From the IMG/VR virus record IMGVR_UViG_3300042303_000421, positions 1 to 64,000 of that record: 64,000 nucleotides of DNA; one strand, written 5' to 3'. This document shows, one piece after another, positions 1-43,147 of this stretch. The notes below the pieces were generated by a model. The model was not told the DNA's origin. It saw only the letters and a list, made by a program, of their open reading frames with translations, and searched no databases. The first letter of the stretch is position 1, and the number at the start of each line of letters is the position of its first letter. Source of the DNA: a virus. A program made the translations under genes and the position numbers.

Positions 1-56
1 TAGCTTCTAACAGATTATCAGTTCTGACGCTTTACACAGCTTAGCTATTATTTTAA

Positions 57-251
57 AAATCACTTGTCCAAATTCTAGTGGAATATTGTTTTTTCATGGT
101 TCTTATGTCTGACACGGAGTAGTTAATTTCCTCGACAATATCTCTACAATAAACACAACTGCTAGTACAGTTTATAAAGTTGAAAATCAATTTCATTAAT
201 TACATGCTGCGCTAGTAAAAACCTTATTGTTTATCTTCAAGCAAATGATTT
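57..251 (-). ncRNA. Candidate structured ncRNA unit closed by terminal stem
   Basis: AAATCACTTG (57-66) pairs with CAAATGATTT (242-251) with one G-U on the minus strand; no ORF listed; strand inferred from neighbours. Confidence 0.4.
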
Positions 252-271
252 ATATATTTATTTATTTTAAA

Positions 272-405
272 AAATAATATTCTAAATAAGATTTACTTTA
301 ACTACTTCTCGATTTAATATAACGCTAATAATGCATTAAATCTACTACTCGTTATTTTCAAAGGTTTATGTGATAGTTAATCACAACTCATTTAGAATAT
401 TATTT
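272..405 (-). ncRNA. Candidate structured ncRNA unit closed by 16-bp stem
   Basis: Perfect inverted repeat AAATAATATTCTAAAT (272-287) / ATTTAGAATATTATTT (390-405) with internal hairpins; U-tract follows on minus strand. Confidence 0.5.
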
Positions 406-412
406 AATTTTA

Positions 413-718
413 TTATTTGTTAGAATTTCTTCTATTGTGTTTTTTAGTTGTAATAACACCTAATGCTTTTTTATCAGCTTCAGTTAATTTTTTAACTGTT
501 TCAGGATGTGTTTTAACTACTGATTCAATGTGTTTAGTTAAAGCAGCATAACCTTTAGATTCAGATTCTTTTTTAACTTCTTCAAAAGTTTTAGGTTTTA
601 CTGAATTATCCATTGCTTTTTTTTGTTCAATGAATTTATTTCTTTTTTCTTTTGTATCATCTTTAGATACAAAATAAATAATACCTACTAGTATTAAAAT
701 AAACAATGCTATTCCCAT
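413..718 (-). CDS. Small protein with N-terminal membrane anchor
   Basis: 101-aa ORF, hydrophobic residues 1-17 then Lys-rich soluble part. Confidence 0.75.
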   Translation of the reverse strand: MGIALFILILVGIIYFVSKDDTKEKRNKFIEQKKAMDNSVKPKTFEEVKKESESKGYAALTKHIESVVKTHPETVKKLTEADKKALGVITTKKHNRRNSNK

Positions 719-770
719 GATTTTAGTTTTTTTTTGTTAATAATTTGTTATTATATTTTGATAGAGTATA

Positions 771-811
771 AAAAATAAACACACGTAATATAATTTCTTT
801 CTTACGTGTGT
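771..811 (-). terminator. Hairpin plus U-tract (terminator or processing stem)
   Basis: ACACACGTAA (779-788) / TTACGTGTGT (802-811) followed by TTATTTTT on minus strand. Confidence 0.55.
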
Positions 812-827
812 CTACTAACTAACTAAA

Positions 828-1208
828 TCAAATTTCAAAGCGTGTTGCTCCTAAATCTGCTGTTGTTTCAACAAATAATGCTAATACATCATCTAAAGGA
901 ATTGCTTTACTTTTAGTGTCATAAAAACATTGTGTGTTGATTGGTGTGACTTGTTTCCATTCTCTACCTTTTTCTTCAATAGTATGGAATGATTTGTTTT
1001 TTGGATTATTATCTCCACCATAATCATTGAATGTTTTCTTTTCAATGAAATGATATGTTATTACAGCTTCACTATCACCATTTTTAATAGCTCTAAGTTT
1101 AGCGTATAATCCATTTGATTTATTAATCTGATTAGGATTAATATGTTTAGACAATTGTGGTTTAACATTTGTGTTACTTTCCACTTTTTTAAAACTTTTA
1201 CTTGACAT
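828..1208 (-). CDS. Hypothetical protein
   Basis: 126-aa ORF, AT-rich leader, co-oriented with neighbours. Confidence 0.7.
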   Translation of the reverse strand: MSSKSFKKVESNTNVKPQLSKHINPNQINKSNGLYAKLRAIKNGDSEAVITYHFIEKKTFNDYGGDNNPKNKSFHTIEEKGREWKQVTPINTQCFYDTKSKAIPLDDVLALFVETTADLGATRFEI

Positions 1209-1222
1209 AATATTTAATTTAA

Positions 1223-1444
1223 TTAGTTAATTTGTTTTACAACTTCATTGATGTATACTGAACTAAAAAGCCATCCTAATAATGAAAAAAACCAAAATGG
1301 ACCTGTCATAACACAAGACATAAATTCAATATCTGTTGTTATTGTAAGAAATGCTGAAATAAATGTAGAAGGTAATAAACCTAATACAAAAATAGAAAGT
1401 ACAATTAATATACCTTCTAATACTTTTAATAATAAGTGTTTCAT
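1223..1444 (-). CDS. Small two-TM membrane protein (paralog of 1847-2062)
   Basis: MKxLLLKVLExIxIVxSIFVLG...PFW...GWL pattern shared with 1847-2062. Confidence 0.8.
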   Translation of the reverse strand: MKHLLLKVLEGILIVLSIFVLGLLPSTFISAFLTITTDIEFMSCVMTGPFWFFSLLGWLFSSVYINEVVKQIN

Positions 1445-1469
1445 AATATTTAATTTGTTAGTTTACTGT

Positions 1470-1826
1470 TTAATAAATAGAATATGTTATAAAATCAGAT
1501 TCTATTAATCTTATTTTTCCTTCCCATGTATTACAACCTCCGAAAGTATAATAATAAGTATTTGTTACTATTTCTTCTTCAGTATTTAATAATGATTCAT
1601 TATAAACAACTAATTCAGTTGAATAAAAATATACATTTTCTAATACTTGTGATGGATTTTCTTCATAACAAGGATATGTATAATTAGTTGTTTTTTTGAA
1701 TGTATGTTTAAACATATATTCATTTAAAGGTTGATTGTTATCTTCTACATATGTATCATCATTTGTACAAGCTAAAGTAAATAATAGTATAATACATACT
1801 ATTGTTGAGGTTAAAAATGTTTTCAT
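1470..1826 (-). CDS. Putative lipoprotein
   Basis: Signal peptide ending LFTLA-C followed by acidic TNDD, typical of Bacteroidota lipoproteins. Confidence 0.7.
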   Translation of the reverse strand: MKTFLTSTIVCIILLFTLACTNDDTYVEDNNQPLNEYMFKHTFKKTTNYTYPCYEENPSQVLENVYFYSTELVVYNESLLNTEEEIVTNTYYYTFGGCNTWEGKIRLIESDFITYSIY

Positions 1827-1846
1827 TATTTAATATAATAAATAGT

Positions 1847-2062
1847 TTACATTAGATCATAATCTAATATATAAGAACCAGCTATAAGCCATCCTGTAAA
1901 TGTAACAACCCAAAAAGGAATAGTTACAATACATTCAGTCATAGTTACGTCTGTAAATATTGTTATAAATGTAGAAACAAGTAAAGGAAATACAATTCCT
2001 AATACAAAAATAGAAGCTACAATTGTAATAGCTTCTAATACTTTTAATAATAATTTTTTCAT
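1847..2062 (-). CDS. Small two-TM membrane protein (paralog of 1223-1444)
   Basis: Clear sequence similarity to 1223-1444. Confidence 0.8.
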   Translation of the reverse strand: MKKLLLKVLEAITIVASIFVLGIVFPLLVSTFITIFTDVTMTECIVTIPFWVVTFTGWLIAGSYILDYDLM

Positions 2063-2093
2063 TATATTTAATTGTTTTAATTAGTTAATATTG

Positions 2094-2165
2094 TAGTCCG
2101 TATGGGATTCGAACCCATGACTTTGCCGTGAAAGGGCAATGACTTAACCACTTGTCGAACGGACC
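2094..2165 (-). tRNA. tRNA-Glu (TTC)
   Basis: Minus strand GGTCCGT acceptor stem, D arm with TGGTTAAG, anticodon arm TTGCC-CTTTCAC-GGCAA, T arm ATGGG-TTCGAAT-CCCAT; CCA not encoded. Confidence 0.95.
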
Positions 2166-2246
2166 GTTTACATTAGTTTTGAACATGATTAAATATACTT
2201 CACTACGATGTCTTCACGTATAATGTTATTGTTTAGTTAGTTAATA

Positions 2247-2408
2247 AAACTATTAGGTTCAATATAGTGTGTACAAGCACCAGCATACCTTTTAATATCC
2301 ACAGAGCTATTGTTACCAATAGATGCTATTAAATTACAGGTGAAGTAAGTATTGTCATGACTCAATATTGTTTAATTTCTTTTCAACATAGTATTGACCT
2401 AATAGTTT
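2247..2408 (-). ncRNA. Candidate structured ncRNA unit upstream of tRNA
   Basis: AAACTATTAGGT (2247-2258) / ACCTAATAGTTT (2397-2408) extended by CAATA/TATTG; internal CTATTG-GTAA-CAATAG hairpin. Confidence 0.5.
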
Positions 2409-2464
2409 GATTTAATATAATCAGTCAACCCAGCATTACCTGTAATTGACTGACTAAAGTGTTG

Positions 2465-2713
2465 TTAAACTTGTTTAAGAATAAATGTTGAATTGTCGTG
2501 TTGATACCACAATGTACCATTAGGAATACTAATAGCGTATTTATTGTTGATATACTCAACACCATCAAATTCTCTCATAAGAAAGTCTTTTACAAATTCT
2601 GCATCTAATTTACCTAATACTTGATACTCTCTCTTGTCAGTCCAATTAGGATATACAAGATTAGATTCAATAGTATGATGAGATATACGATTAATCACTT
2701 CAAATTGTGCCAT
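2465..2713 (-). CDS. Hypothetical protein
   Basis: 82-aa ORF with plausible composition. Confidence 0.7.
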   Translation of the reverse strand: MAQFEVINRISHHTIESNLVYPNWTDKREYQVLGKLDAEFVKDFLMREFDGVEYINNKYAISIPNGTLWYQHDNSTFILKQV

Positions 2714-2754
2714 AATTTTGTTATTTAGTCAGTTAATAATTTGTTTTAAAAATA

Positions 2755-2993
2755 AACTAATATATGAGGTATTACATCTCATACTGTTACCAACAGCTAT
2801 AATTAGTTAAAAATAAATACAAAGTGTGCAATATACTTGTCTATACACCACTAACTTCCTCTTTGTATTTAAAAAATAAACTCTACAAGGTTGCACCTTG
2901 AAATTATAATGAGGAACCTGTAGAAATGCTCTATTATAATATATCACTTGGTTTACAAGTCTTTGTGATAATTCCTGCAATTGGATAGAGTTT
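2755..2993 (-). ncRNA. Three abutting stem-closed RNA units (2755-2808, 2815-2870, 2878-2993)
   Basis: Inverted repeats AACTAAT/ATTAGTT, AAATACAAAG/CTTTGTATTT, AAACTCTA/TAGAGTTT, each followed on minus strand by TTATTTTT-like tract. Confidence 0.5.
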
Positions 2994-3096
2994 AAAATTC
3001 GTGCATAGCTACGCTAGTATACTATGTTCTTTTTTGTATATCATAATCTATTTGTTCTATTGTTTGTAGCTATATTATAAATAGACAAAATACTAC

Positions 3097-3275
3097 AACT
3101 CACCTGATCTTATTTCTGCGTCAGTGACATAAAAATGCATTTTACACCTAAAACTTTATTTGTTATATCTTTAATAAGATAACCTATAGACTAATAATTA
3201 CCTATTTTATAAGGGAATAAGCTAACTAATAATAAAGAAACTGGTGTCCTCAACATCTTGGAAAGTTATTAAGTT
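3097..3275 (-). ncRNA. Candidate multibranch ncRNA
   Basis: Nested stems AACTCA/TAAGTT, ACACC (3144-3148)/GGTGT (3243-3247), CTTTATT/AATAAAG, CTGA/TCAG; no ORF listed. Confidence 0.45.
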
Positions 3276-3666
3276 TTTTAGTAAATAAATTGTTCTTTCA
3301 TCATTGAACTAGTGTATATAATCAGAATATACTATTTAATTTACTATTTTGATAGACATTTCTACTTATATTATTCAATCAATAAGATAAACCAATTTGA
3401 GGAAATGTGCTATAATAAAAGAGCAATGTGGTTAAATTGAATGATGAAATGAGAGAGAATGTTGATTGTAGGGATAATCCTTCACTCATACCACTACATT
3501 AACCTCTGTCAAACCCTATAAACACTGACATTTCATAGATAATAACTGTGAGATAGAGTTTTAAAAGTAATAAGAGAAATGTCGAGAACTCTTAATACAT
3601 TTAAAGTATATTCTCACAGTCATATCAATGATAGGTTGTTGCATTACTATGTGTAATACTACGTGT

Positions 3667-3689
3667 CAAACAAAAGAGGTCGAAACCTC
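3667..3689 (-). terminator. Intrinsic terminator
   Basis: Minus strand GAGGT-TTCG-ACCTC-TTTTGTTTG directly after the 3697 stop. Confidence 0.75.
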
Positions 3690-3696
3690 AATTGTA

Positions 3697-4122
3697 TTAT
3701 GGGCCTACCTTAACTACAGGCTCTTTAGCAACTTCTTCAAGTACTACAAATTGACGATGTAGTGACTCACGTTGGTCTGCAGGACATAATCTAATTTGGC
3801 TGTAACGTCCTAATTTAGCTTCTGTGGAAGGATTAATATCTTCCTCTTGTCCTTCATAGAAAGGTGTTTTAGAGAAAGCACGATAAGGAGCAATTTTACC
3901 CTTATTAACAGAGTTAATTACTAAGTCTACTTGGCGAGACACTGCCTCTGTAGACATACCTTTAATCCACACTAAAGATTTCTCTTCTCTAACATAACCT
4001 GTGTTCATATCTAATGTTTCATCATTGATTTCAACACACATTGAGGTTTGTTCTCTACCGTCTGAAGTAGTTTTAGTCCATACTGACTGACTGTTTGCGT
4101 CTACGAATTTCTTTGCGTTCAT
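3697..4122 (-). CDS. Hypothetical protein, first gene of the leftward arm
   Basis: 141-aa ORF followed by terminator. Confidence 0.8.
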   Translation of the reverse strand: MNAKKFVDANSQSVWTKTTSDGREQTSMCVEINDETLDMNTGYVREEKSLVWIKGMSTEAVSRQVDLVINSVNKGKIAPYRAFSKTPFYEGQEEDINPSTEAKLGRYSQIRLCPADQRESLHRQFVVLEEVAKEPVVKVGP

Positions 4123-4323
4123 GATACGTTTGTTTATTGTGTAGTGAGTGTTGACAATGTAACTAAAACACTACAATTATACATTAAATTTTAGCAAGCC
4201 TATAAAACATAGGGTATACTCCAAAATTTTGAAGAAGTCGGGGCATGATATTGGCTTAGCAACCACTCTTAATCATAAAAAATTTTAAAAAAAAATATTT
4301 TTCAAAAAAAAATTACAACAATT

Positions 4324-4399
4324 AGCTATTAGAGAATGTAATTATAACAAAAATTTAACTAAAAAAATTTGGAAATTACAAATAAATGTTGTATCTTTG
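4324..4399 (+). promoter_or_regulatory. Bacteroidota-type promoter with upstream AGCTATTAG box
   Basis: TTTG 4368-4371, 20-nt spacer, TATCTTTG 4392-4399; AGCTATTAG at 4324-4332. Confidence 0.8.
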
Positions 4400-4413
4400 C
4401 ACTTATTAAAATA

Positions 4414-4685
4414 TCTTACTTTGAAAGATGCTCTGCTGGATACCATAAATTTGCTCCAGTATCAAAGGGTTAAGTAAGAAGTTGGAATCCAATCGTTCCC
4501 AACAATTCAAGACTATAAATTGATTTAACAAAAAGTGTCACGAACTAAAAATGTTACTAGATAACAGTTAAATCTGGGATAATGCACTGTTTATAGTTCA
4601 AGAAGAAGTTAAAATATGACGGTTTATGCAATACACACCAGTTTGCATATAGGGATTCTTATATCTAATTACTAAAGTTAGATAT
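4414..4685 (+). ncRNA. Candidate structured RNA / long 5' leader
   Basis: At least seven stems between the promoter and the 4714 ATG (see findings). Confidence 0.55.
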
Positions 4686-4713
4686 TAAATAGTTAATTAT
4701 AAATTAATATATA

Positions 4714-5256
4714 ATGGTGTATTTTGTGTCCGATGGTATCTATACTAAAATAGGTAAAAGTAAAACTCCTTTAAATAGAATAAAGGAATTACAAACAAGT
4801 AATGCTAATAAATTATTTTTTACACATTTATTTGATGTAAAAGATAAATATGAAAAAACATTACATAAATTATTTAAAGAATATAAAACTGATTCTAATA
4901 ATGAATGGTTTGATTTAAGAAATGTTAATATTGAAAATATACTTATTGGTAATCTATTTAAAATTCCACAATTTATAGATATTAAACTAGCTGAGTTTAA
5001 AGCTTTACAATTTAATTCTAAAGTTAATAAAACATTTAAACAAAATCAAAATATTCCTAATACAGATAGTTGTGATAAAAGTAAAATTAAATTATTATTA
5101 GACGATATTAAACATTGTTTAAAGAATAAAAAAAATACAAGAATATCCTATCATAAATATATTGTTGATTATGGTTTTACTAAAGAACAAATATCTTTTT
5201 TTGTAAAATCAGCAAGATTAAACAAATTAGTAGCTAAACACAATAATAATATTTAG
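4714..5256 (+). CDS. T5orf172/GIY-YIG-superfamily nuclease-domain protein
   Basis: VYFV...KIGKS..P..RIKELQT.N...E..LH..F......EWF pattern. Confidence 0.75.
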   Translation: MVYFVSDGIYTKIGKSKTPLNRIKELQTSNANKLFFTHLFDVKDKYEKTLHKLFKEYKTDSNNEWFDLRNVNIENILIGNLFKIPQFIDIKLAEFKALQFNSKVNKTFKQNQNIPNTDSCDKSKIKLLLDDIKHCLKNKKNTRISYHKYIVDYGFTKEQISFFVKSARLNKLVAKHNNNI

Positions 5257-5286
5257 TACCCCTCCTATGATAGTATTGTAGGATCC

Positions 5287-5320
5287 AACCACTTTAACTT
5301 AGGTTTTAGTGGTTTTTTTT
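5287..5320 (+). terminator. Intrinsic terminator
   Basis: AACCACT/AGTGGTT stem plus T-run. Confidence 0.75.
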
Positions 5321-5361
5321 ATGTCTATATATGTTAAAGTTTTGTTAAACACTTTAAATAA

Positions 5362-5393
5362 TTTGGATATATCATTTATTTTTTGTATCTTTG
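5362..5393 (+). promoter_or_regulatory. Bacteroidota-type promoter
   Basis: TTTG 5362-5365, N20, TATCTTTG 5386-5393. Confidence 0.75.
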
Positions 5394-5416
5394 TACAAGA
5401 TTTAAAATTAGAGGTT

Positions 5417-5611
5417 ATGACATATAAAGATTGGTGTAGTAAATTACAGTGGTTAAGAGATAAAGTTATATTACCAGATGGTACTTCACTTAGTAAAGCA
5501 GATTATATTACTAAAGATGGATTTGATATTAAATCCTTTAATGAATTACTTTATAACTTATATGAAAAACAAACAAAAGAAGTTAAATATTTTAATGATG
5601 AATGGAATTAA
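5417..5611 (+). CDS. Hypothetical protein
   Basis: Start moved to ATG 5417 because the longer ORF call runs through a terminator and promoter. Confidence 0.65.
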   Translation: MTYKDWCSKLQWLRDKVILPDGTSLSKADYITKDGFDIKSFNELLYNLYEKQTKEVKYFNDEWN

Positions 5612-5794
5612 ATGAGGATAACAGATAATATATTTATAGAACTTAATAATCCTAGAATAGAATTTACATTAGGGTTACATCACGAAATAGATATGGTGAT
5701 GATAGAGAAAGAAGATGAAGAAGAGAATGAAATTATACCAATGTATAGATTGGTTTTAGGATTTTTAGTGTTTAACATAACAATATTTTACTAA
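5612..5794 (+). CDS. Hypothetical small protein
   Basis: 60-aa ORF abutting neighbours. Confidence 0.65.
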   Translation: MRITDNIFIELNNPRIEFTLGLHHEIDMVMIEKEDEEENEIIPMYRLVLGFLVFNITIFY

Positions 5795-6069
5795 TGTTTT
5801 TAGATATACAAAAGAAATACAACGAAATAGAACAAGATATTATAGAGAATGAAAAGGATATATTTTTAAGATATAACTATTTTTCTAAGAAATATAAGGG
5901 TGATAGATTAAATGATGTGAATGTAGGTTTATTTTTAAATGATAATTTAGAACCAGTAGCACAGATATTTGTTAGAAACAAAACGGGTTATATTAAAAAA
6001 CATATAATCTTTAATAGAGAAGGAAATAAAATTTTAAATACAATAACTTTAAATTATAAAATAAACTAA
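5794..6069 (+). CDS. Hypothetical protein
   Basis: TAATG coupling at both ends. Confidence 0.7.
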   Translation: MFLDIQKKYNEIEQDIIENEKDIFLRYNYFSKKYKGDRLNDVNVGLFLNDNLEPVAQIFVRNKTGYIKKHIIFNREGNKILNTITLNYKIN

Positions 6070-37400: not shown

Positions 37401-38505
37401 ACAACCTAATTTATTTTTAAGAAAAGACTTAAATTATAATTTTAAAAAAGAAAATATTTATGATGCTAATGTAATTGCTTCTAGTCTTAAATCTCCTGGA
37501 GAATTAATTGATAGTTGGACTAATTTACTTCCAAATGAAGTTCTTTCATTAGATGGTAAATATGGACCTATTACACATCTACATAATTTTAAAGATGAAC
37601 TTTATACTTTTCAAGATAATGGTGTAGCTTTTTTATCTATTAATCCTAGAGTACAAGTACAAGGTTCAGATGGTATATCTGTAGAATTAGGTTCTGGTCA
37701 AGTATTACAAGAGTATAAATATATTAGTACAGATTCAGGTACATTAAATAAATGGTCAGTTGTAAATAGTCCACAAACATTTTATTTTTATGATTTAAAT
37801 AATAAATCTATTAAAATGTTTAATAATGGAGCTAGTAAATTATCAGATATAAAAGGATTACATTCATTTTTACAAAATAATACTACTGATGGTTTATTAA
37901 AAAATAATAATCCTATTTTAAGAGCTGGTATAACATCAGGATATGATTATATTAATAATGAGGCATTTATGACTTTTTTACAAGGAAATAAATCTTTTAC
38001 TATTAATTATAATGAATTAACTCAAAGCTTTATAAGTTTGTATGATTACTTACCTAATATGTATATTAGTAAAGGTAATAACTTTTTAGTAACACATCCT
38101 AATAATAAAAAAATATATAAACAGTATGCTGGACAATACAATGTATACTTTGATACATATTATCCTTCTTATATAACTTTAATGTTAAATCCTGAAGCAG
38201 ATTTAGATTGTGTATTTGATAATATTCAATTTAAATCAGAACTTTATTTAAATGATATTGATCAACCTGATGAAACATTAACTAAGATTCAAGCTTATAA
38301 TGAGTATCAAAACTCTGGTTTAATACCTTTAGAGTTGGGTAGAAATAAAAATCTTAGACGTAAGTTTAGAGATTGGCACGCATTAATACCTAGAGAAGGT
38401 AGAAATAGAATACGTAATCCTTGGGTTTATTTAAAATTACAATTAGATAATGAGGATAATTATAAGATGATTTTGCACGATATTATTTGTTACTATACAG
38501 TTTAA
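34432..38505 (+). CDS. Tail stabilisation/muzzle protein
   Basis: 1357 aa beta-rich; GMNKD, N.RI, YWVDG.N..R..N, D.WT, YG.I, R.R..W; synteny. Confidence 0.75.
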   Translation: MNKATKITYNGGMNKDISKSKFQPQFYFEGKNIRIIATDSQSTGSVTNEKGNSLILELPSIVINDGVITYGNKTLLYTTNELTNSTSTEQVIIGHSYNRECFILFTTDNNGIDCIWKLNESDFDLRLLYVRNLNFSSNYPIWALSNFENKKIDKVYWVDGVNQMRFLNINHSISNGDLEQLIDIPVTTINQVSNFNLSQPQITDKLVGGNHTSGMIQYAYNLYRINSSQTKISPLSELISLDKSTLGGGEVNEVVSTTPIIYIPSIDKNYTNLKLYSIKYTSYNQIPEISLLLDTDITNNEDLTYYDDGNIIQNVSLEQFTFLGSDIIIPKHINSKDNRLFSANYEEKNYNIDLDCRAYSFQALGNSKVVDRFETVGSNPLFPIEEITIDFTTPNYDSIPLNHSSINKDYDKYKYTNNGIQLGGEGKYLKYELKRRQDLTLKADNVFKDNEIYRIGLQFYNLKGQISLPKWIADFKTHPNNLDQSNLNGWFSYLEITLKSEFYTWLNDSNNFLTDEGNYDEELKPVGYKILRADRTLNDKTIICQGIINTMMSMGRHGGDGFNVSDFGENYGLINTNNEISADNGLKMPSLMRRIDSYLSPIHGMDNYSKLDRQIPFHPQSSALDSSPSNEVYKSTSSSGWIKDFWQYNHMMQLFSPEILFDNINNININSKLKIIGGIENNNNEWWSQLRNPETKETAYEAKGSNSLTPWDIKCSETLGTLVKSIADPYQNFKYGLIATNEGYTPFSQYLREYKGNFKRSLANTSNPYNTLIFGGREYDFYGTPIITEKGQGRTVYNNDINYAYSNSWQPILTDDSVSAPAVIGANSYGAKNLTFVLGLGTSILPKNRINYKNLHTHTLLTDQDISLIGEIKIPEIQIYIGNIYGGNTYESKKRTNYIEIGEYININNSNIIIYNPGDTFINDFKFTKLVKTDVEKYGINTMQTTEIVSVRIETSVNLKNRNDSSIGAWDSIFQTRYDDFHKYNKVYSQQPNLFLRKDLNYNFKKENIYDANVIASSLKSPGELIDSWTNLLPNEVLSLDGKYGPITHLHNFKDELYTFQDNGVAFLSINPRVQVQGSDGISVELGSGQVLQEYKYISTDSGTLNKWSVVNSPQTFYFYDLNNKSIKMFNNGASKLSDIKGLHSFLQNNTTDGLLKNNNPILRAGITSGYDYINNEAFMTFLQGNKSFTINYNELTQSFISLYDYLPNMYISKGNNFLVTHPNNKKIYKQYAGQYNVYFDTYYPSYITLMLNPEADLDCVFDNIQFKSELYLNDIDQPDETLTKIQAYNEYQNSGLIPLELGRNKNLRRKFRDWHALIPREGRNRIRNPWVYLKLQLDNEDNYKMILHDIICYYTV

Positions 38506-38560
38506 TTATAAACTATTAATAAAATAAGTATAAAATATATTGTTAAATAATTGTGAAAAA

Positions 38561-38592
38561 TTAGGAAATATAGAAAATATTTTGTATATTTG
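38561..38592 (+). promoter_or_regulatory. Bacteroidota-type promoter
   Basis: TTAG 38561-38564, N20, TATATTTG 38585-38592. Confidence 0.7.
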
Positions 38593-38611
38593 TATAAATT
38601 ATAAATAATTT

Positions 38612-39550
38612 ATGAAACAAGGAGTATATCAAATAAGAAATTTAGTAAATAAAAAAAGATATATCGGTAGTTCTATTGATTTAAATAAAAGAAAAGATGA
38701 GCATTTTTACTATCTTAGAAGAAATGCTCATCATAATATACATTTACAAAATTCTTTTAATGAATATGGTGAAAGTAAATTTTTATTTGAAACTATTGAA
38801 TCTAATGATAATTTAGATAGAGATGAACTTTATGAATTAGAGCAGTTTTATATAGATTCTTTTAATTGGGAAAATCTTTATAATATAAATAAAGATGTTA
38901 AAAGTGGTGGTTCAGATGTATTATCTATTCCTATATTACTTTTAGATTTAAATCATAATATTATAGAAGAATTTGAAAGTATTCAACAATGTAGTAGATT
39001 TTTAAATAAATCACAAATTAATTCTAATCGATTAAACAACAATACAATTATTTCTAATAATTATAGAATTGTAACTAAAGATTTTTATGATTCTGAAATA
39101 GAAGAAATTTTAAGTTGGAAAAATAAATTAGAAGAACAACTTGTTGAAGAAGAAAATCGTGAAGAATATAAAAGATTAAATAAAATAATTTATTTAGATT
39201 TAAATAATAAAACATATAGATTTGAAACATTAAAAGAAGCTGGAAATTTTGTAAATCTTTCAAGTGAAAGAGTTAGACAAATACTTAATTCAGATTGGAA
39301 AATTAATCAAAAATATAAATTTTATAATTTGTGTGATAAAGAAACAAAATATCAAAATCAAAAAGAATTAGAAACATATTTACAAAATAAACCCATTAAA
39401 ACAAAATATGATAAATATTACAAATTTGATGAAAAATCAAATGAATGGATAGTTTTTACAGAAGATGAAATTATTGCTAAAGTAGATAATGAACAAAAAG
39501 CTAAACTAATAAGTAAATATTTATTTAAAACATTACAAGAAGAAGAATAA
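38612..39550 (+). CDS. Free-standing GIY-YIG homing endonuclease
   Basis: GVYQI.N..N.K.YIGSS....R...H...L....H.N..LQ, EQ.YID, YNI; NUMOD1-like segments. Confidence 0.9.
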   Translation: MKQGVYQIRNLVNKKRYIGSSIDLNKRKDEHFYYLRRNAHHNIHLQNSFNEYGESKFLFETIESNDNLDRDELYELEQFYIDSFNWENLYNINKDVKSGGSDVLSIPILLLDLNHNIIEEFESIQQCSRFLNKSQINSNRLNNNTIISNNYRIVTKDFYDSEIEEILSWKNKLEEQLVEEENREEYKRLNKIIYLDLNNKTYRFETLKEAGNFVNLSSERVRQILNSDWKINQKYKFYNLCDKETKYQNQKELETYLQNKPIKTKYDKYYKFDEKSNEWIVFTEDEIIAKVDNEQKAKLISKYLFKTLQEEE

Positions 39551-39556
39551 ACACAC

Positions 39557-39591
39557 AAAGGGTAATTAAGTAAAATTAGTTACCCTTTTTT
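39557..39591 (+). terminator. Intrinsic terminator
   Basis: AAAGGGTAATTAA/TTAGTTACCCTTT plus T-run. Confidence 0.8.
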
Positions 39592-39614
39592 AATATAAAA
39601 TTTTTACTAACAAT

Positions 39615-41291
39615 ATGAACAAAATAACAACTTACAATGAAGGTGGTACACATTCCACTAACCCAAATGGTGGAATTCCTATGGGTACAAGTCCTGAAGG
39701 GGCACAAAATACTGTAGAGCAAGGAGAAGCTAGAATGGGTGATATGATATACTCTAATAGAATTCCTTTATCTCAAGAAGCTGTAGAAGCTGTAGGATTA
39801 CCTCGTAAATTTGCAGGTAAAACTCCAGGTCAAATTATGTCTTTAATTGATAAAACATTTAAAGATAGAAATGATCAGCCTTCACAAGCTACTAAAAAAG
39901 ATATTGCTGATAAAGTTGCACAAGCTCAAGAGATGATTAAAGCTCAACAAGAAGCTATGCAAACACAATCACAAGAAGTACCTGATATGATGAATGGTGA
40001 AATACCTGAAGGTATGAATCAATTTGTACTTGGTGGTGATATAACACAAGGTACATTACCTTTAGGAGGTTTAGATGATTTAGCTGGAGGTTTAACTAGT
40101 TTAGCAACAGGTAATAAAGATCAAGCTTTAACTCAAGGTATAACAGGAGGACTTACTTTAGCTGGTACAGCTATTGGTGGACCAGTTGGTGGATTTATAG
40201 GTAAAACAATTGCTGATATTGGAACAGGAATTATAAATGGAGAAAAAGCTAAAAAAGAAGCCCAAAAACAAGCAGTTGTTGATGCTAAAATATTAGGTTC
40301 ACAATATACGTCTGATTTTGCATTAGGTGGTAATATGTATGAAGGTGAAGGTCCTTTAGGATTTCGTAAATCTACAAGTACAATACCTCAAGTTGGAGCA
40401 CCAATTGGTAAAATACTACCAACTGTAATGAATCAAAATATTCGTAGACAAGTAACACCAGTTAATTCATTAAAAGTTGATAATAAAACATTTACAGCTA
40501 ATGGTCCTGTACTAACTGATAAAAGTCAATTACCTCAAATTGGACAATCTACTACTACTGAAAATAAATTTAATTGGAAAAAAGTAGGAGATGAAGTTAA
40601 AAAAAATTATCCTCACGTATTAAGAGCTGCTCCAGTAGCAATGAATCTTGCAGAATTAGCTAGACTTAAAAAGAATGGTTACGATAAAGTAAATCCTGTT
40701 TTAAATGATACTAGATTTAAACCTGAATATATTGATGAGAAATCATTAGTTAATTTAGCTAATAGTGAAATGAATAATTCTATAAATGCAATTAGTCAAA
40801 TGGGAGGTTCGCAAGGAGCTACTAGAAACGCTATAATTGCAGCAGGATTAAATAAAAATAAAGCTTTAAATCAAGCAATGATTGAAGCTCAAGGTAAAAA
40901 TATAGCAACTAATCAATTTGGTCAACAATTTAATAATCAAAATACTGAAGCTAATATAGCACGTACAGTAATGGCTGAAGATTTAACAGCTCGTAATAAA
41001 GGTGCTTATGAAACTAATAGAAGTAAATTAGTTGGTCAATTAGGTACAGATATAGGTTCTATTGGAAAAGAAGAAGTATTTAAAGATATTGCAGAAAATA
41101 TGACAGGTTATACTTGGTTAGGAGAATATTTAAAAATAAATCCTAATGCTACTGAAGAAGAAGTAAAAGCTGCTGCACAAGAAGAAGTTAAAAAGAAAGG
41201 TACAACTTATTTTAAAAATAGACCTTCAATAGATACATCACCAATTACCACAGGAGCTTATGGTGGTAAAATGAAATTTAAAAAATATTAA
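39615..41291 (+). CDS. Putative ejection/cargo protein
   Basis: GGTH..NP.GG....VE.GE start, Gly-rich hydrophobic segment, Q/N-rich coils. Confidence 0.6.
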   Translation: MNKITTYNEGGTHSTNPNGGIPMGTSPEGAQNTVEQGEARMGDMIYSNRIPLSQEAVEAVGLPRKFAGKTPGQIMSLIDKTFKDRNDQPSQATKKDIADKVAQAQEMIKAQQEAMQTQSQEVPDMMNGEIPEGMNQFVLGGDITQGTLPLGGLDDLAGGLTSLATGNKDQALTQGITGGLTLAGTAIGGPVGGFIGKTIADIGTGIINGEKAKKEAQKQAVVDAKILGSQYTSDFALGGNMYEGEGPLGFRKSTSTIPQVGAPIGKILPTVMNQNIRRQVTPVNSLKVDNKTFTANGPVLTDKSQLPQIGQSTTTENKFNWKKVGDEVKKNYPHVLRAAPVAMNLAELARLKKNGYDKVNPVLNDTRFKPEYIDEKSLVNLANSEMNNSINAISQMGGSQGATRNAIIAAGLNKNKALNQAMIEAQGKNIATNQFGQQFNNQNTEANIARTVMAEDLTARNKGAYETNRSKLVGQLGTDIGSIGKEEVFKDIAENMTGYTWLGEYLKINPNATEEEVKAAAQEEVKKKGTTYFKNRPSIDTSPITTGAYGGKMKFKKY

Positions 41292-41293
41292 TA

Positions 41294-43147
41294 ATGAATA
41301 GATATACAAATATGTCCGTTTCTGCATATGATCCGTTATCACTACAAGAAGTATTAATGGCCCCAGTTATGAAACGTCAGCAACACGATCAAACTTCTGC
41401 TCAATTAGGTGCATTAGAAGCTGAATTAGCTAAAATAGATCCTTTAGATGTTCATAATGAATATGCTAAAGCTGAAAGAGCTAAATTAGCTGATAAAATA
41501 AATCAACAAGCTGAGTTATTAAATAAACAAGGTTATACAAATAATACTAAAGGTGATTTATTAAAATTTAATAGAGAATTTCAAGAAACTATATCACCTA
41601 CAGGTACAATAGGTCAAATAAATCAAGCAAAAGTAGTACACGATCAATTATACAAAGATTGGATGTCTACAGAAGAAGCTAAGAAAGCAGGACCTGAAGT
41701 AGCTACTCAACGTTGGTTAGAACATAGAAAAAAATATGCTGATGATTTTGGTCTTAATCAAAAAGTTAAACCAATTGGTCAAATGGTTGCTCCTAAATTT
41801 CAAGATTTAGAAGCAGATATAAAAGATTTTATGACAGGTTTAGGTGAAACAACTAAAGGTTGGATTACAAAAAACGGTTATGGTTTTGATGAAGGTCCTG
41901 AAGGTACTTTAATTATGGTTACAGAAACAGGTAAAAGAGTTACAAGTGATAATGTAAAACAAATTGAAAGTGCTACACAAAGACTTGCTGAAAAATGGAT
42001 TAAAGAAAATGCACCAGGTCGTGAGTGGGCAGATTTTACAAGTACAGATAAAAATTATATTATAAATCAAATTAATTTAGCTGCTGGTTCTAAAATTAAA
42101 ACTAAAGTAGATGATTCTTTATCTACAGGTAGAACTTGGAAAGGTGATTTAAAGAAAAAAGAAGAAGAAAATTCCAATGTACCTTCAGTTACAGAACCTG
42201 TAGTTGAATTTAATAATAACAAAACAAATTTAGCTTCTTCTTTAAATAAATTAGGTCAATATAAACCTTCTGTAACAAATGTTAGAATTACTAGTACTGG
42301 TCCTGGAGGATTTAATACTAAGGAATCAGCTGCAAATGGTGTTTATACTGAAAAAGATTTAAGTAAATCTGAGTTAGAATATTATGATACTATGTATAAT
42401 GCTATGAAAAATAGTGGTCAAATAGATGCTAAAGAACCTAAGTTTTCTAAAGCTAATGTTACTAAAATCCAGCAATATATTAAAAATACACAAAATTATT
42501 CTTTTTCTAATAAAATATTAAAACCTACAGCGGTAGATAATAATTTACAAAAACCTTTAGTTTTTACATCTAAAAAAGGTACAGATATGAATACTCATCT
42601 TTTACAAGAAGTTTCTTCAGGTAGAAGAACTTTAATAGACAAAGATTCTCAAAAAACAATTGATTTATCTAAATATCCAAATTATAAAGTAGAATATGTA
42701 GGAATGGTTTCACCAGATAATGTTTTAACTAAAAATGATAAAACTACTTTTAATGATGATTCTTTTGTTTTACCACATGTTGTACAAATTACATATAAAG
42801 AAGGTGGTGTAGAAAAAAGAAAAGAAGTTTACATGGATAGAGATTCTGAAGAAATTAAAAAACCAGAATTTAAAGCTTCTAAAACAATTAAAAATATTAC
42901 ATTAAAAGGAAAACAAGCTCCTGGTTTAATTAATAAATATGAAGATAAAACTTTAAACGAAATTGGTTTAAAAGAAATTGAAAGTGTTTATGTAGCTGAA
43001 CAAGATGGATATATTGTTAAATATAAAAAAGCTAATGGTGAAACCTATCAAGAAACAGATGATAATGGTAATCCTTTAGTATTACCTTCTGAATATGTAC
43101 AAAATCAAATTTATGAAATGTACGATAGAAGATTTAATAAAAAATAA
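41294..43147 (+). CDS. Putative ejection/cargo protein
   Basis: 617 aa between cargo genes, upstream of vRNAP. Confidence 0.55.
   Translation: MNRYTNMSVSAYDPLSLQEVLMAPVMKRQQHDQTSAQLGALEAELAKIDPLDVHNEYAKAERAKLADKINQQAELLNKQGYTNNTKGDLLKFNREFQETISPTGTIGQINQAKVVHDQLYKDWMSTEEAKKAGPEVATQRWLEHRKKYADDFGLNQKVKPIGQMVAPKFQDLEADIKDFMTGLGETTKGWITKNGYGFDEGPEGTLIMVTETGKRVTSDNVKQIESATQRLAEKWIKENAPGREWADFTSTDKNYIINQINLAAGSKIKTKVDDSLSTGRTWKGDLKKKEEENSNVPSVTEPVVEFNNNKTNLASSLNKLGQYKPSVTNVRITSTGPGGFNTKESAANGVYTEKDLSKSELEYYDTMYNAMKNSGQIDAKEPKFSKANVTKIQQYIKNTQNYSFSNKILKPTAVDNNLQKPLVFTSKKGTDMNTHLLQEVSSGRRTLIDKDSQKTIDLSKYPNYKVEYVGMVSPDNVLTKNDKTTFNDDSFVLPHVVQITYKEGGVEKRKEVYMDRDSEEIKKPEFKASKTIKNITLKGKQAPGLINKYEDKTLNEIGLKEIESVYVAEQDGYIVKYKKANGETYQETDDNGNPLVLPSEYVQNQIYEMYDRRFNKK

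Follow-up and report, generated by a model that had tools for sequence, protein, structure and literature searches.

The leftward arm of a virus contig in the IMG/VR database (IMGVR_UViG_3300042303_000421) raises the question of whether its long non-coding stretches harbor one repeated system of small RNAs or a set of unrelated elements. The crAss-like phages rank among the most abundant viruses of the gut and of fresh water, and their early takeover of the host is almost unknown. The window analyzed here is the first 64 kb of this 79.6-kb contig (estimated completeness 79%) and starts at the contig end. Strong matches to phage families were obtained for the contig's major head protein, portal, and large terminase, the structural arm is partly ~70% identical in DNA to the Cellulophaga crAss-like phage phi14:2 (9% of a 7.3-kb query), and DNA of the phage is present in lake and freshwater metagenomes. 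The genes of positions 1–4122, seven small orphan open reading frames (ORFs) and one tRNA-Glu, all lie on the minus strand; the large rightward arm begins at 4714. Because this position and orientation are as described for phi14:2, we take the left arm to be the early arm of a freshwater crAss-like phage. A first-pass annotation had described almost all intergenic DNA of the arm as tiled by about ten stem-closed units and had inferred a phage cassette system of non-coding RNAs.

Our comparisons favor a different answer: with a probability of roughly 0.6, the non-coding DNA of the left arm is a mosaic of independent modules and not one repeated cassette system. Three of these modules, designated here element A (1–50), element B (3134–3283), and element C (49–253), are separate, widely conserved structured RNAs. 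The core of each is near-invariant and probably serves as a docking site for a conserved factor of host or phage. In B and C, the core is joined by arms that differ completely even between near-identical phages. Short hairpins with U-runs end small ORFs, a leader and a hairpin frame a slot for unrelated ORFs, and the remaining stem-closed units with a U-run, which are lineage-specific, are most simply viewed as large terminators, insulators, or young small-RNA genes. All features are given below in window coordinates and are read on the minus strand.

Element A (1–50) is a three-way-junction RNA of 48 nucleotides (nt), identified as a single copy in the contig by a covariance model (73 bits). 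Initially listed as a partial unit at 1–47, it is actually complete, being cut by at most 1 nt, and since it adjoins the contig end, its downstream partner is missing here. Its structure comprises P1 (UAGCU/AGCUA), P2 (GCU-GUGUAA-AGC), and P3, a covarying hairpin of 6 base pairs (bp) with a loop ending in AUAA. An alignment of 27 distinct copies revealed that P1 and P2 are invariant and that five of the six P3 pairs have changed on both sides; 93.6% of the cells were paired, as compared with 20–42% when the pairing partners were slid. The G–U pair closing P3 fits the minus strand only, and the G–U pairs of B and C are likewise compatible with that strand alone. An exact 18-mer of element A was found in 48 IMG/VR contigs of 4 to 430 kb, and the same 18-mer occurs in the cultured Flavobacterium phages elemoA and elemoC. 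A host origin was rejected, as the only true copy among 185,579 species genomes lies in one 4.5-kb contig of a metagenome-assembled genome. Twelve complete genomes that carry A without B have no detectable homologue of the capsid protein of this phage, and A is therefore not confined to crAss-like phages.

The surroundings of element A were compared in 42 distinct contexts. It lies 0–2 nt 5′ of a tRNA in seven of them, directly 5′ of an uncatalogued RNA starting RGGYUAAACAUUGA (itself often 5′ of a phage transfer-messenger RNA, tmRNA) in about 19, and 5′ of a short hairpin plus tmRNA in three. In four contexts, a terminator follows directly, so that A constitutes a stand-alone gene there. Some copies begin about 9 nt after a Bacteroidota-type TAnnTTTG box. 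A scan of 19 loci carrying element A against Rfam returned tRNA and tmRNA only. Hammerhead and anticodon-loop readings, both made by eye, were discarded, since neither the junction strands nor the variable loop length agree with them, and a tRNA identity was rejected on the basis of the missing T arm and a loop that varies from 7 to 10 nt. As to the neighboring RNAs, the one starting RGGYUAAACAUUGA spans 280–415 nt between element A and the phage tmRNA (L116 2585–2990, L120, L123, L124, L143, and ~15 more loci), where Rfam finds tmRNA only. At a further locus (L148), ARAGORN calls a suppressor-type 'tRNA-Stop' directly after element A, and several other A-linked tRNA-like sequences, which start GUCAGGUG and were not recognised as tRNAs, may carry inserts.

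Element B (3134–3283) is best described as a pseudoknotted scaffold RNA with a hypervariable arm, and its conserved borders replace those of the unit initially drawn at 3097–3275. Two blocks are near-invariant, AAAAAACUYAAUAACUUUCCAAG-NNN-UUGAGGACACCAGUUUC at the 5′ side and AAGUUUUAGGUGUAAAAYRC at the 3′ side. P1 consists of 5 bp (CUYAA/UUGAG) with the invariant loop AACUUUCCAAG, and a helix ACACC/GGUGU is followed by P2, which closes the variable arm (84 nt in this phage) and contains five covarying pairs. Across 14 short copies, 92.8% of the cells in four helices were paired, and eight of the 18 pairs had changed on both sides. Compensatory variants of the ACACC/GGUGU helix were identified in the second copies of L064 (ACGCC/GGCGU) and of G040 (ACACU/AGUGU), the latter record holding three copies of the element. 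Furthermore, the last two bases of the P1 loop form a 2-bp pseudoknot with two bases located after GGUGUAAAA in the 3′ tail. This pairing takes the forms UG:CA, CA:UG, CG:CG or CG:UG, and UA:UA, and it was intact in 154 of 154 cells versus 121 ± 4 in shuffles.

The arms of element B, by comparison, are highly diverse. They measure 15–207 nt between the conserved blocks, with 76 distinct versions in 85 copies (arms of this length range are carried by 78 distinct copies), and they swap, such that identical flanks enclose unrelated arms and identical arms sit in different flanks. A 16-mer of B occurs in at least 109 IMG/VR contigs, and its GenBank occurrences are confined to genomes of uncultured gut crAss-like phages, in which it carries no annotation. 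Twelve of the 18 complete genomes with B encode a capsid protein detectably homologous to that of this phage (22–58% identity), and about 60 nt of B remain near-invariant across phage families whose capsid proteins share only 22–35% identity. Such a conserved core in divergent phages points to a conserved binding partner. In this phage, in the gut crAss phage cr6_1, and in copy 2 of G040, B is followed by a hairpin (3097–3125 here) and a U-rich tail, and in five lake phages (G003, G004, G005, L103, and L034) it adjoins an ORF leader directly; B is therefore a module able to stand alone or to lead a gene. An Rfam scan of a minimal 81-nt copy returned nothing meaningful. Mimicry of tRNA by the B arms was rejected, as T-arm-like hairpins showed no enrichment (1 of 72 arms versus 1.4 expected). 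Element B also lies within ~150 nt of the contig end in L029, L019, L071, L091, L175, and MT835473, and its conserved core with a variable arm probably breaks metagenome assemblies. Just upstream of B, the lake phages L026, L072, L081, and L018 share a block, UUACAACUGAGUGCARAGGGA, that may be the end of another RNA.

Element C (49–253), an RNA of about 200 nt with multiple helices, was searched for in the contig with an nhmmer profile, which returned one copy (E = 2e-38). Its homologues were found in five phage records and, by a 20-mer scan, in 72 metagenome loci from lakes, sludge, and the sea; 29 complete distinct copies were present among the loci found, and none was found in GenBank phages. 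Three invariant blocks are separated by two hypervariable arms of 31–127 and 42–141 nt. Both ends pair in a closing helix, AAAUCAYUUG/CAAGUGAUUU, of 8–10 bp including a G–U pair, which is followed by U5 and kept in 22 aligned homologues, confirming that the unit first drawn at 57–251 is stem-closed. The RNAalifold consensus holds 38 pairs, nine of which display compensatory changes. Besides the closing helix, it includes a helix that pairs block 1 with block 2, a stem that closes arm 1 and covaries strongly, and two hairpins with CUAG in both loops, one of them with three A–U to C–G switches. Every copy ends in GUGAUUUU and has a U-tail, and the 3′ end of C looks like a terminator built from the closing helix. 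Hairpins resembling a tRNA T arm (GGUUNRAGYCC) were found in seven of 90 C arms versus 1.0 expected (e.g. L222, L229, and L192).

Fold stability does not track conservation in the left arm. The z-scores of the conserved elements were close to those of shuffled sequence (A +0.2, C −1.0, and B −0.4), and strong z-scores were limited to the simple long hairpins at 272–405, 779–811, 2421–2453, and 3545–3620. As a practical warning, fold-versus-shuffle scores thus missed all three conserved RNAs and favored unconserved hairpins. Of the two checks proposed at first pass, folding better than shuffled controls held for four simple hairpins and failed for A, B, and C, and covariation held for A, B, and C, with homologues in dozens to more than 100 other phage contigs; five units have no detectable homologue. 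The claim of near-complete tiling was too strong, as the stretches 2166–2246, 2994–3096, and 3286–3544 gave no signal in the fold-versus-shuffle scan. Closing inverted repeats do exist at or near the proposed unit ends, with perfect arms of 9–16 bp at six units: 272–405 (16 bp), 779–811 (10), 2247–2408 (12), 2814–2871 (11), 2877–2994 (9), and 3545–3620 (9). Within the 1803 nt of non-coding left-arm DNA, we counted ten perfect inverted repeats (arms of at least 9 bp, span of at most 200 nt) against 3.65 ± 1.97 in 200 dinucleotide shuffles, none of which reached ten, and coding blocks of equal length held a mean of 4.4 (range 0–10). The enrichment is real but moderate.

Could these units nevertheless form one system? 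Under this explanation, cleavage of a single polycistronic early transcript at the closing stems would yield some ten stable small RNAs with a common decoy or anti-defence role. The units do share an architecture, in which an A-rich 5′ arm and a U-rich 3′ arm are followed by a U-run; the proposed U-rich tract was recovered as five to six U directly after the closing stem in six of the ten units. All lie on the strand of the early genes, and the hypervariable arms of B and C are as expected in an arms race. In addition, the early arm of phi14:2 produces abundant, stable non-coding RNAs from the long intergenic regions of g004–g006, from the first time point onward (Drobysheva et al., bioRxiv 10.1101/2020.03.07.982082). 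These are transcribed in the direction of the early genes, and their function is not known (bioRxiv 10.1101/2020.03.07.982082). The resemblance is that both of these related crAss-like phages have long early-arm stretches without ORFs; the two regions have no sequence match, and it is in phi14:2 that expression was observed. The elements themselves argue against a single system: A, B, and C share neither sequence nor fold, and each is found in other phages independently of the remaining two (C loci without A, B loci without A), and when their profiles were run against the whole contig, no extra or divergent copies appeared among the other units, each family being single-copy. Moreover, two of the ten units are plain terminators after ORFs, five have no homologue, and neither processing sites nor a link to defence is in evidence. 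We therefore regard a single ten-unit system as quite unlikely.

The ORF slot at 2409–2752 exemplifies how modules of the mosaic may be exchanged. Its 5′ leader (2714–2752, AAACAAAUUAUUAACUGACUAAAUAACAAAAUU-AUG) is 91–100% identical in nine other contigs, including G002–G005 and G009, in which its part 2714–2746 is 93–100% identical, and its 3′ hairpin region (2409–2469) is 93–100% identical in G002, G003, G004, G005, G009, and five metagenome contigs. Within the latter, the 10-bp stem at 2421–2453 (z −4.0) confirmed a hairpin proposed at first pass; it follows its ORF and is itself followed by a mixed A/U tail and not a U-run. In this phage the slot is occupied by an orphan ORF of 82 amino acids (2465–2713) without a Pfam or PHROGs match, and in other phages five unrelated ORFs, encoding proteins of 75–121 amino acids, stand between the same leader and hairpin. 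Recombination at the conserved flanks most likely drives the exchange of these ORFs between phages. Part of the hairpin region is complementary to the leader (inverted-repeat pair I21). In relatives, B touches the slot leader, and here about 400 nt, including the units at 2755–2993, lie between them. Loci L165, L167, L168, L169, and L171 display the same leader and hairpin around unrelated small ORFs. To our knowledge, a cassette of this type has not been described for crAss-like phages. The slot resembles the T4-type PeSL promoter/stem-loop cassettes, in which a plastic early region has unrelated small ORFs placed between short, conserved regulatory sequences (PMC2839356, PMC4122927), and here, too, related phages have the same flanks around non-homologous ORFs. 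The sequences differ from those of PeSL, the 5′ piece here could be a promoter or a leader, and the likeness covers 2409–2752 only.

These observations bring in a second explanation, namely that the elements act only in cis as punctuation, serving as terminators, attenuators, mRNA-stabilising ends, or recombination anchors, and yield no trans-acting RNA. Hairpin-plus-U tails do stand after most of the ORFs and units, the ORFs exchanged in the slot have the leader and hairpin on either side, B adjoins an ORF leader in the five lake phages mentioned above, and the conserved blocks of B and C flank their swapped arms in the same manner. Terminators, however, need no 50–100 invariant nucleotides, pseudoknots, or multi-helix junctions across families with 22–35% capsid identity, and both A and B are also found on their own, with a terminator as their boundary. 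On balance, a role restricted to cis punctuation appears unlikely.

For some of the units, a terminator is indeed the closest description. A hairpin followed directly by a U-run after a gene, the arrangement of intrinsic terminators, was found at 779–811 (10-bp stem, z −5.2 to −5.6, then UUAUUUUUU; after the ORF at 828–1208) and at 3676–3689 (then UUUUGUUU; directly after the ORF at 3697–4122), and both are classified here as terminator-like. The tails of 272–405, C, 2755–2808, 2815–2870, and 2878–2993 show the same features, and element A and the B core lack them. The unit at 272–405 forms a Y-shaped long hairpin with a 19-bp closing stem and a 16-bp perfect inverted repeat (minus-strand z −5.0, plus-strand z −3.8). 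As it starts 8 nt after the stop codon of the ORF at 413–718 and ends in U6, it is placed like a large terminator, and it is probably a lineage-specific terminator or 3′ untranslated region structure; no homologue was found in INPHARED, ~100 related records, or the 72 metagenome loci. Between the slot hairpin and the tRNA, the stem-closed unit at 2247–2408 (12-bp perfect closing repeat) had z-scores of −2.1 for the minus strand and −3.1 for the plus strand, and the hairpin at 3545–3620 is long and very stable (z −6.0 to −6.6). Three back-to-back stem-closed units, each followed by AUUUUU, occupy 2878–2993, 2815–2870, and 2755–2808 (z −2.8, −1.9, and −0.7, respectively), the last of which, contrary to its first listing as a folded unit, folds no better than shuffles on the minus strand. 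The unit at 2878–2993 ends in a small hairpin, CAAGGUGCAACCUUG, and its 30-nt hairpin-plus-U tail is the only part of 2755–2993 that recurs elsewhere (L218 and L232). Apart from this tail, the units 2247–2408, 2755–2808, 2815–2870, 2878–2993, and 3545–3620 have no homologues in INPHARED, ~100 whole related records, or the 72 metagenome loci. The initial view that the region is not junk spacer was right, and at least three units are structured RNAs; the other units include two gene-end terminators (779–811 and 2421–2453) and the five without a homologue.

Terminal inverted repeats of 9–19 bp in an AT-rich context could also mark the stem-closed units as mobile elements of the miniature inverted-repeat type, or as what is left of such elements. 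The contig holds one copy of each unit, no target-site duplications were seen, the orphan units were not found in ~100 related records, and the closing helix of C covaries like an RNA helix. We consider a mobile origin extremely improbable.

Several known identities were also compared with the region. An Rfam 15 covariance scan of window positions 1–6000 at E values up to 10, which took in hammerhead, twister, pistol, hatchet, HDV-like, riboswitch, GOLLD, ROOL, Y RNA, and 6S models, matched only a tRNA and none of the units. As previously proposed, a real tRNA does lie among the units: the tRNA-Glu (UUC) at 2093–2165 was called by ARAGORN and by the Rfam tRNA model (64.6 bits), and it was the only unit that qualified as a tRNA or tmRNA. 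A protein-coding reading under a reassigned stop was rejected, as neither TAG as Gln nor TGA as Trp (table 4) opens a sizeable ORF in the gaps. Tandem-repeat RNAs, such as a ToxI-like type III toxin–antitoxin RNA or a CRISPR-like array, were likewise rejected, as no tandem or direct repeat family longer than 28 nt was found in 1–4800.

How might the mosaic operate? By analogy with phi14:2, the left arm would be transcribed early by an injected virion RNA polymerase, and structured segments would remain as discrete small RNAs, with the closing helix and U-tract defining their 3′ ends. RNase P could cut the tRNA-like RNA 3′ of element A and thereby release A. The arms of B and C would be exchanged via recombination at the cores, and the invariant cores would bind a conserved partner. 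Going further, B and C might be display scaffolds, in which an invariant pseudoknotted or multi-helix core recruits a conserved host or phage factor. Hypervariable arms, recombined at the core between co-circulating phages, would then provide specificity in an arms race with the host, whether as decoys, as sponges, or as guides. In a related reading, A or B might belong to a new class of self-cleaving RNAs acting as punctuation in the early transcript. We hold these extensions to be very unlikely; if true, the scaffolds would be an RNA counterpart of diversity cassettes.

Several points weigh against the mosaic of conserved RNAs proposed here. P1 and P2 of element A and most of the ACACC/GGUGU helix of B hardly vary, partly because the copies were collected with exact seeds. 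The forms of the B pseudoknot follow clades, so that independent changes are few and the pairing may trace back to only two to four events in evolution. In the parts of phi14:2 searched, none of A, B, and C was found, and the analogy with that phage is therefore positional only. The ends and the stability of the A, B, and C transcripts are assumed, and for five units the evidence consists of folding.

Comparison with known RNAs places the three elements near several families. Element A lies 5′ of its tRNA, whereas theta ribozymes are reportedly placed 3′ of the tRNA. Like these HDV-like (hepatitis delta virus-like) ribozymes (PMC10879173), A is a small conserved RNA that adjoins phage tRNA genes, but it forms a plain three-way junction without a nested double pseudoknot and has no HDV-type Rfam match. 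GOLLD (RF01998), ROOL (RF03087), and the T4 small stable RNAs are also structured phage RNAs of unknown function, often located near tRNA genes; compared with GOLLD and ROOL, A, B, and C are much smaller (48–250 nt) and have their own folds, with no Rfam match at E values up to 10. Y RNAs and the bacterial YrlA, which are bound by Ro/TROVE proteins, resemble C in that their 5′ and 3′ ends pair as a closing stem around variable modules and in the T-arm-like hairpins of the C arms. The gut phage crAss001 encodes an early TROVE protein (PMC8375218). The Y RNA/Ro reading was nevertheless rejected, as neither this contig nor 28 of the 29 complete genomes bearing one of the elements had a TROVE gene, and no Rfam Y RNA match was obtained; the Ro-binding helix was not identified, and a partner could still be a host Ro protein. 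Two large computational surveys of structured RNAs exist. The text of one such survey (PMC10690425) makes no mention of crAss-like phages. By the Rfam comparison, A, B, and C are uncatalogued.

The left arm shows that early regions of crAss-like phages carry several distinct, strongly conserved RNA families without an Rfam entry, with A in at least 48 viral contigs, B in at least 109, and C in 72 metagenome loci. Defining the families would allow their annotation and the choice of cultured carriers (elemoA and elemoC for A), and would make it possible to test for a use of RNA scaffolds and exchangeable cassettes by phages early in infection.

The remaining observations concern the genes and other parts of the phage genomes. 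The seven left-arm ORFs had no matches in Pfam or PHROGs searches and are all orphans, and two left-arm proteins used as queries for close relatives found none. An exact motif, TTAACTNAYTAAA, occurs four times, always on the minus strand of the left arm (1218–1230, 2076–2088, 2232–2244, and 2724–2736); three of the copies precede start codons by 9–13 nt and the other precedes the tRNA-Glu by 66 nt, and the motif may be an early promoter or leader element. The divergent intergenic region between the two arms (4212–4413) is 74–77% identical over 100–200 nt to regions in G008 (L166) and L235 and may be a further conserved non-coding element. Finally, in the gut crAss-like records G088 (38385–41595) and G097 (86914–90124), the head-protein match is split into three separate frames (287, 169, and 87 amino acids) over ~3.2 kb, which suggests that introns or other inserts interrupt the capsid gene.

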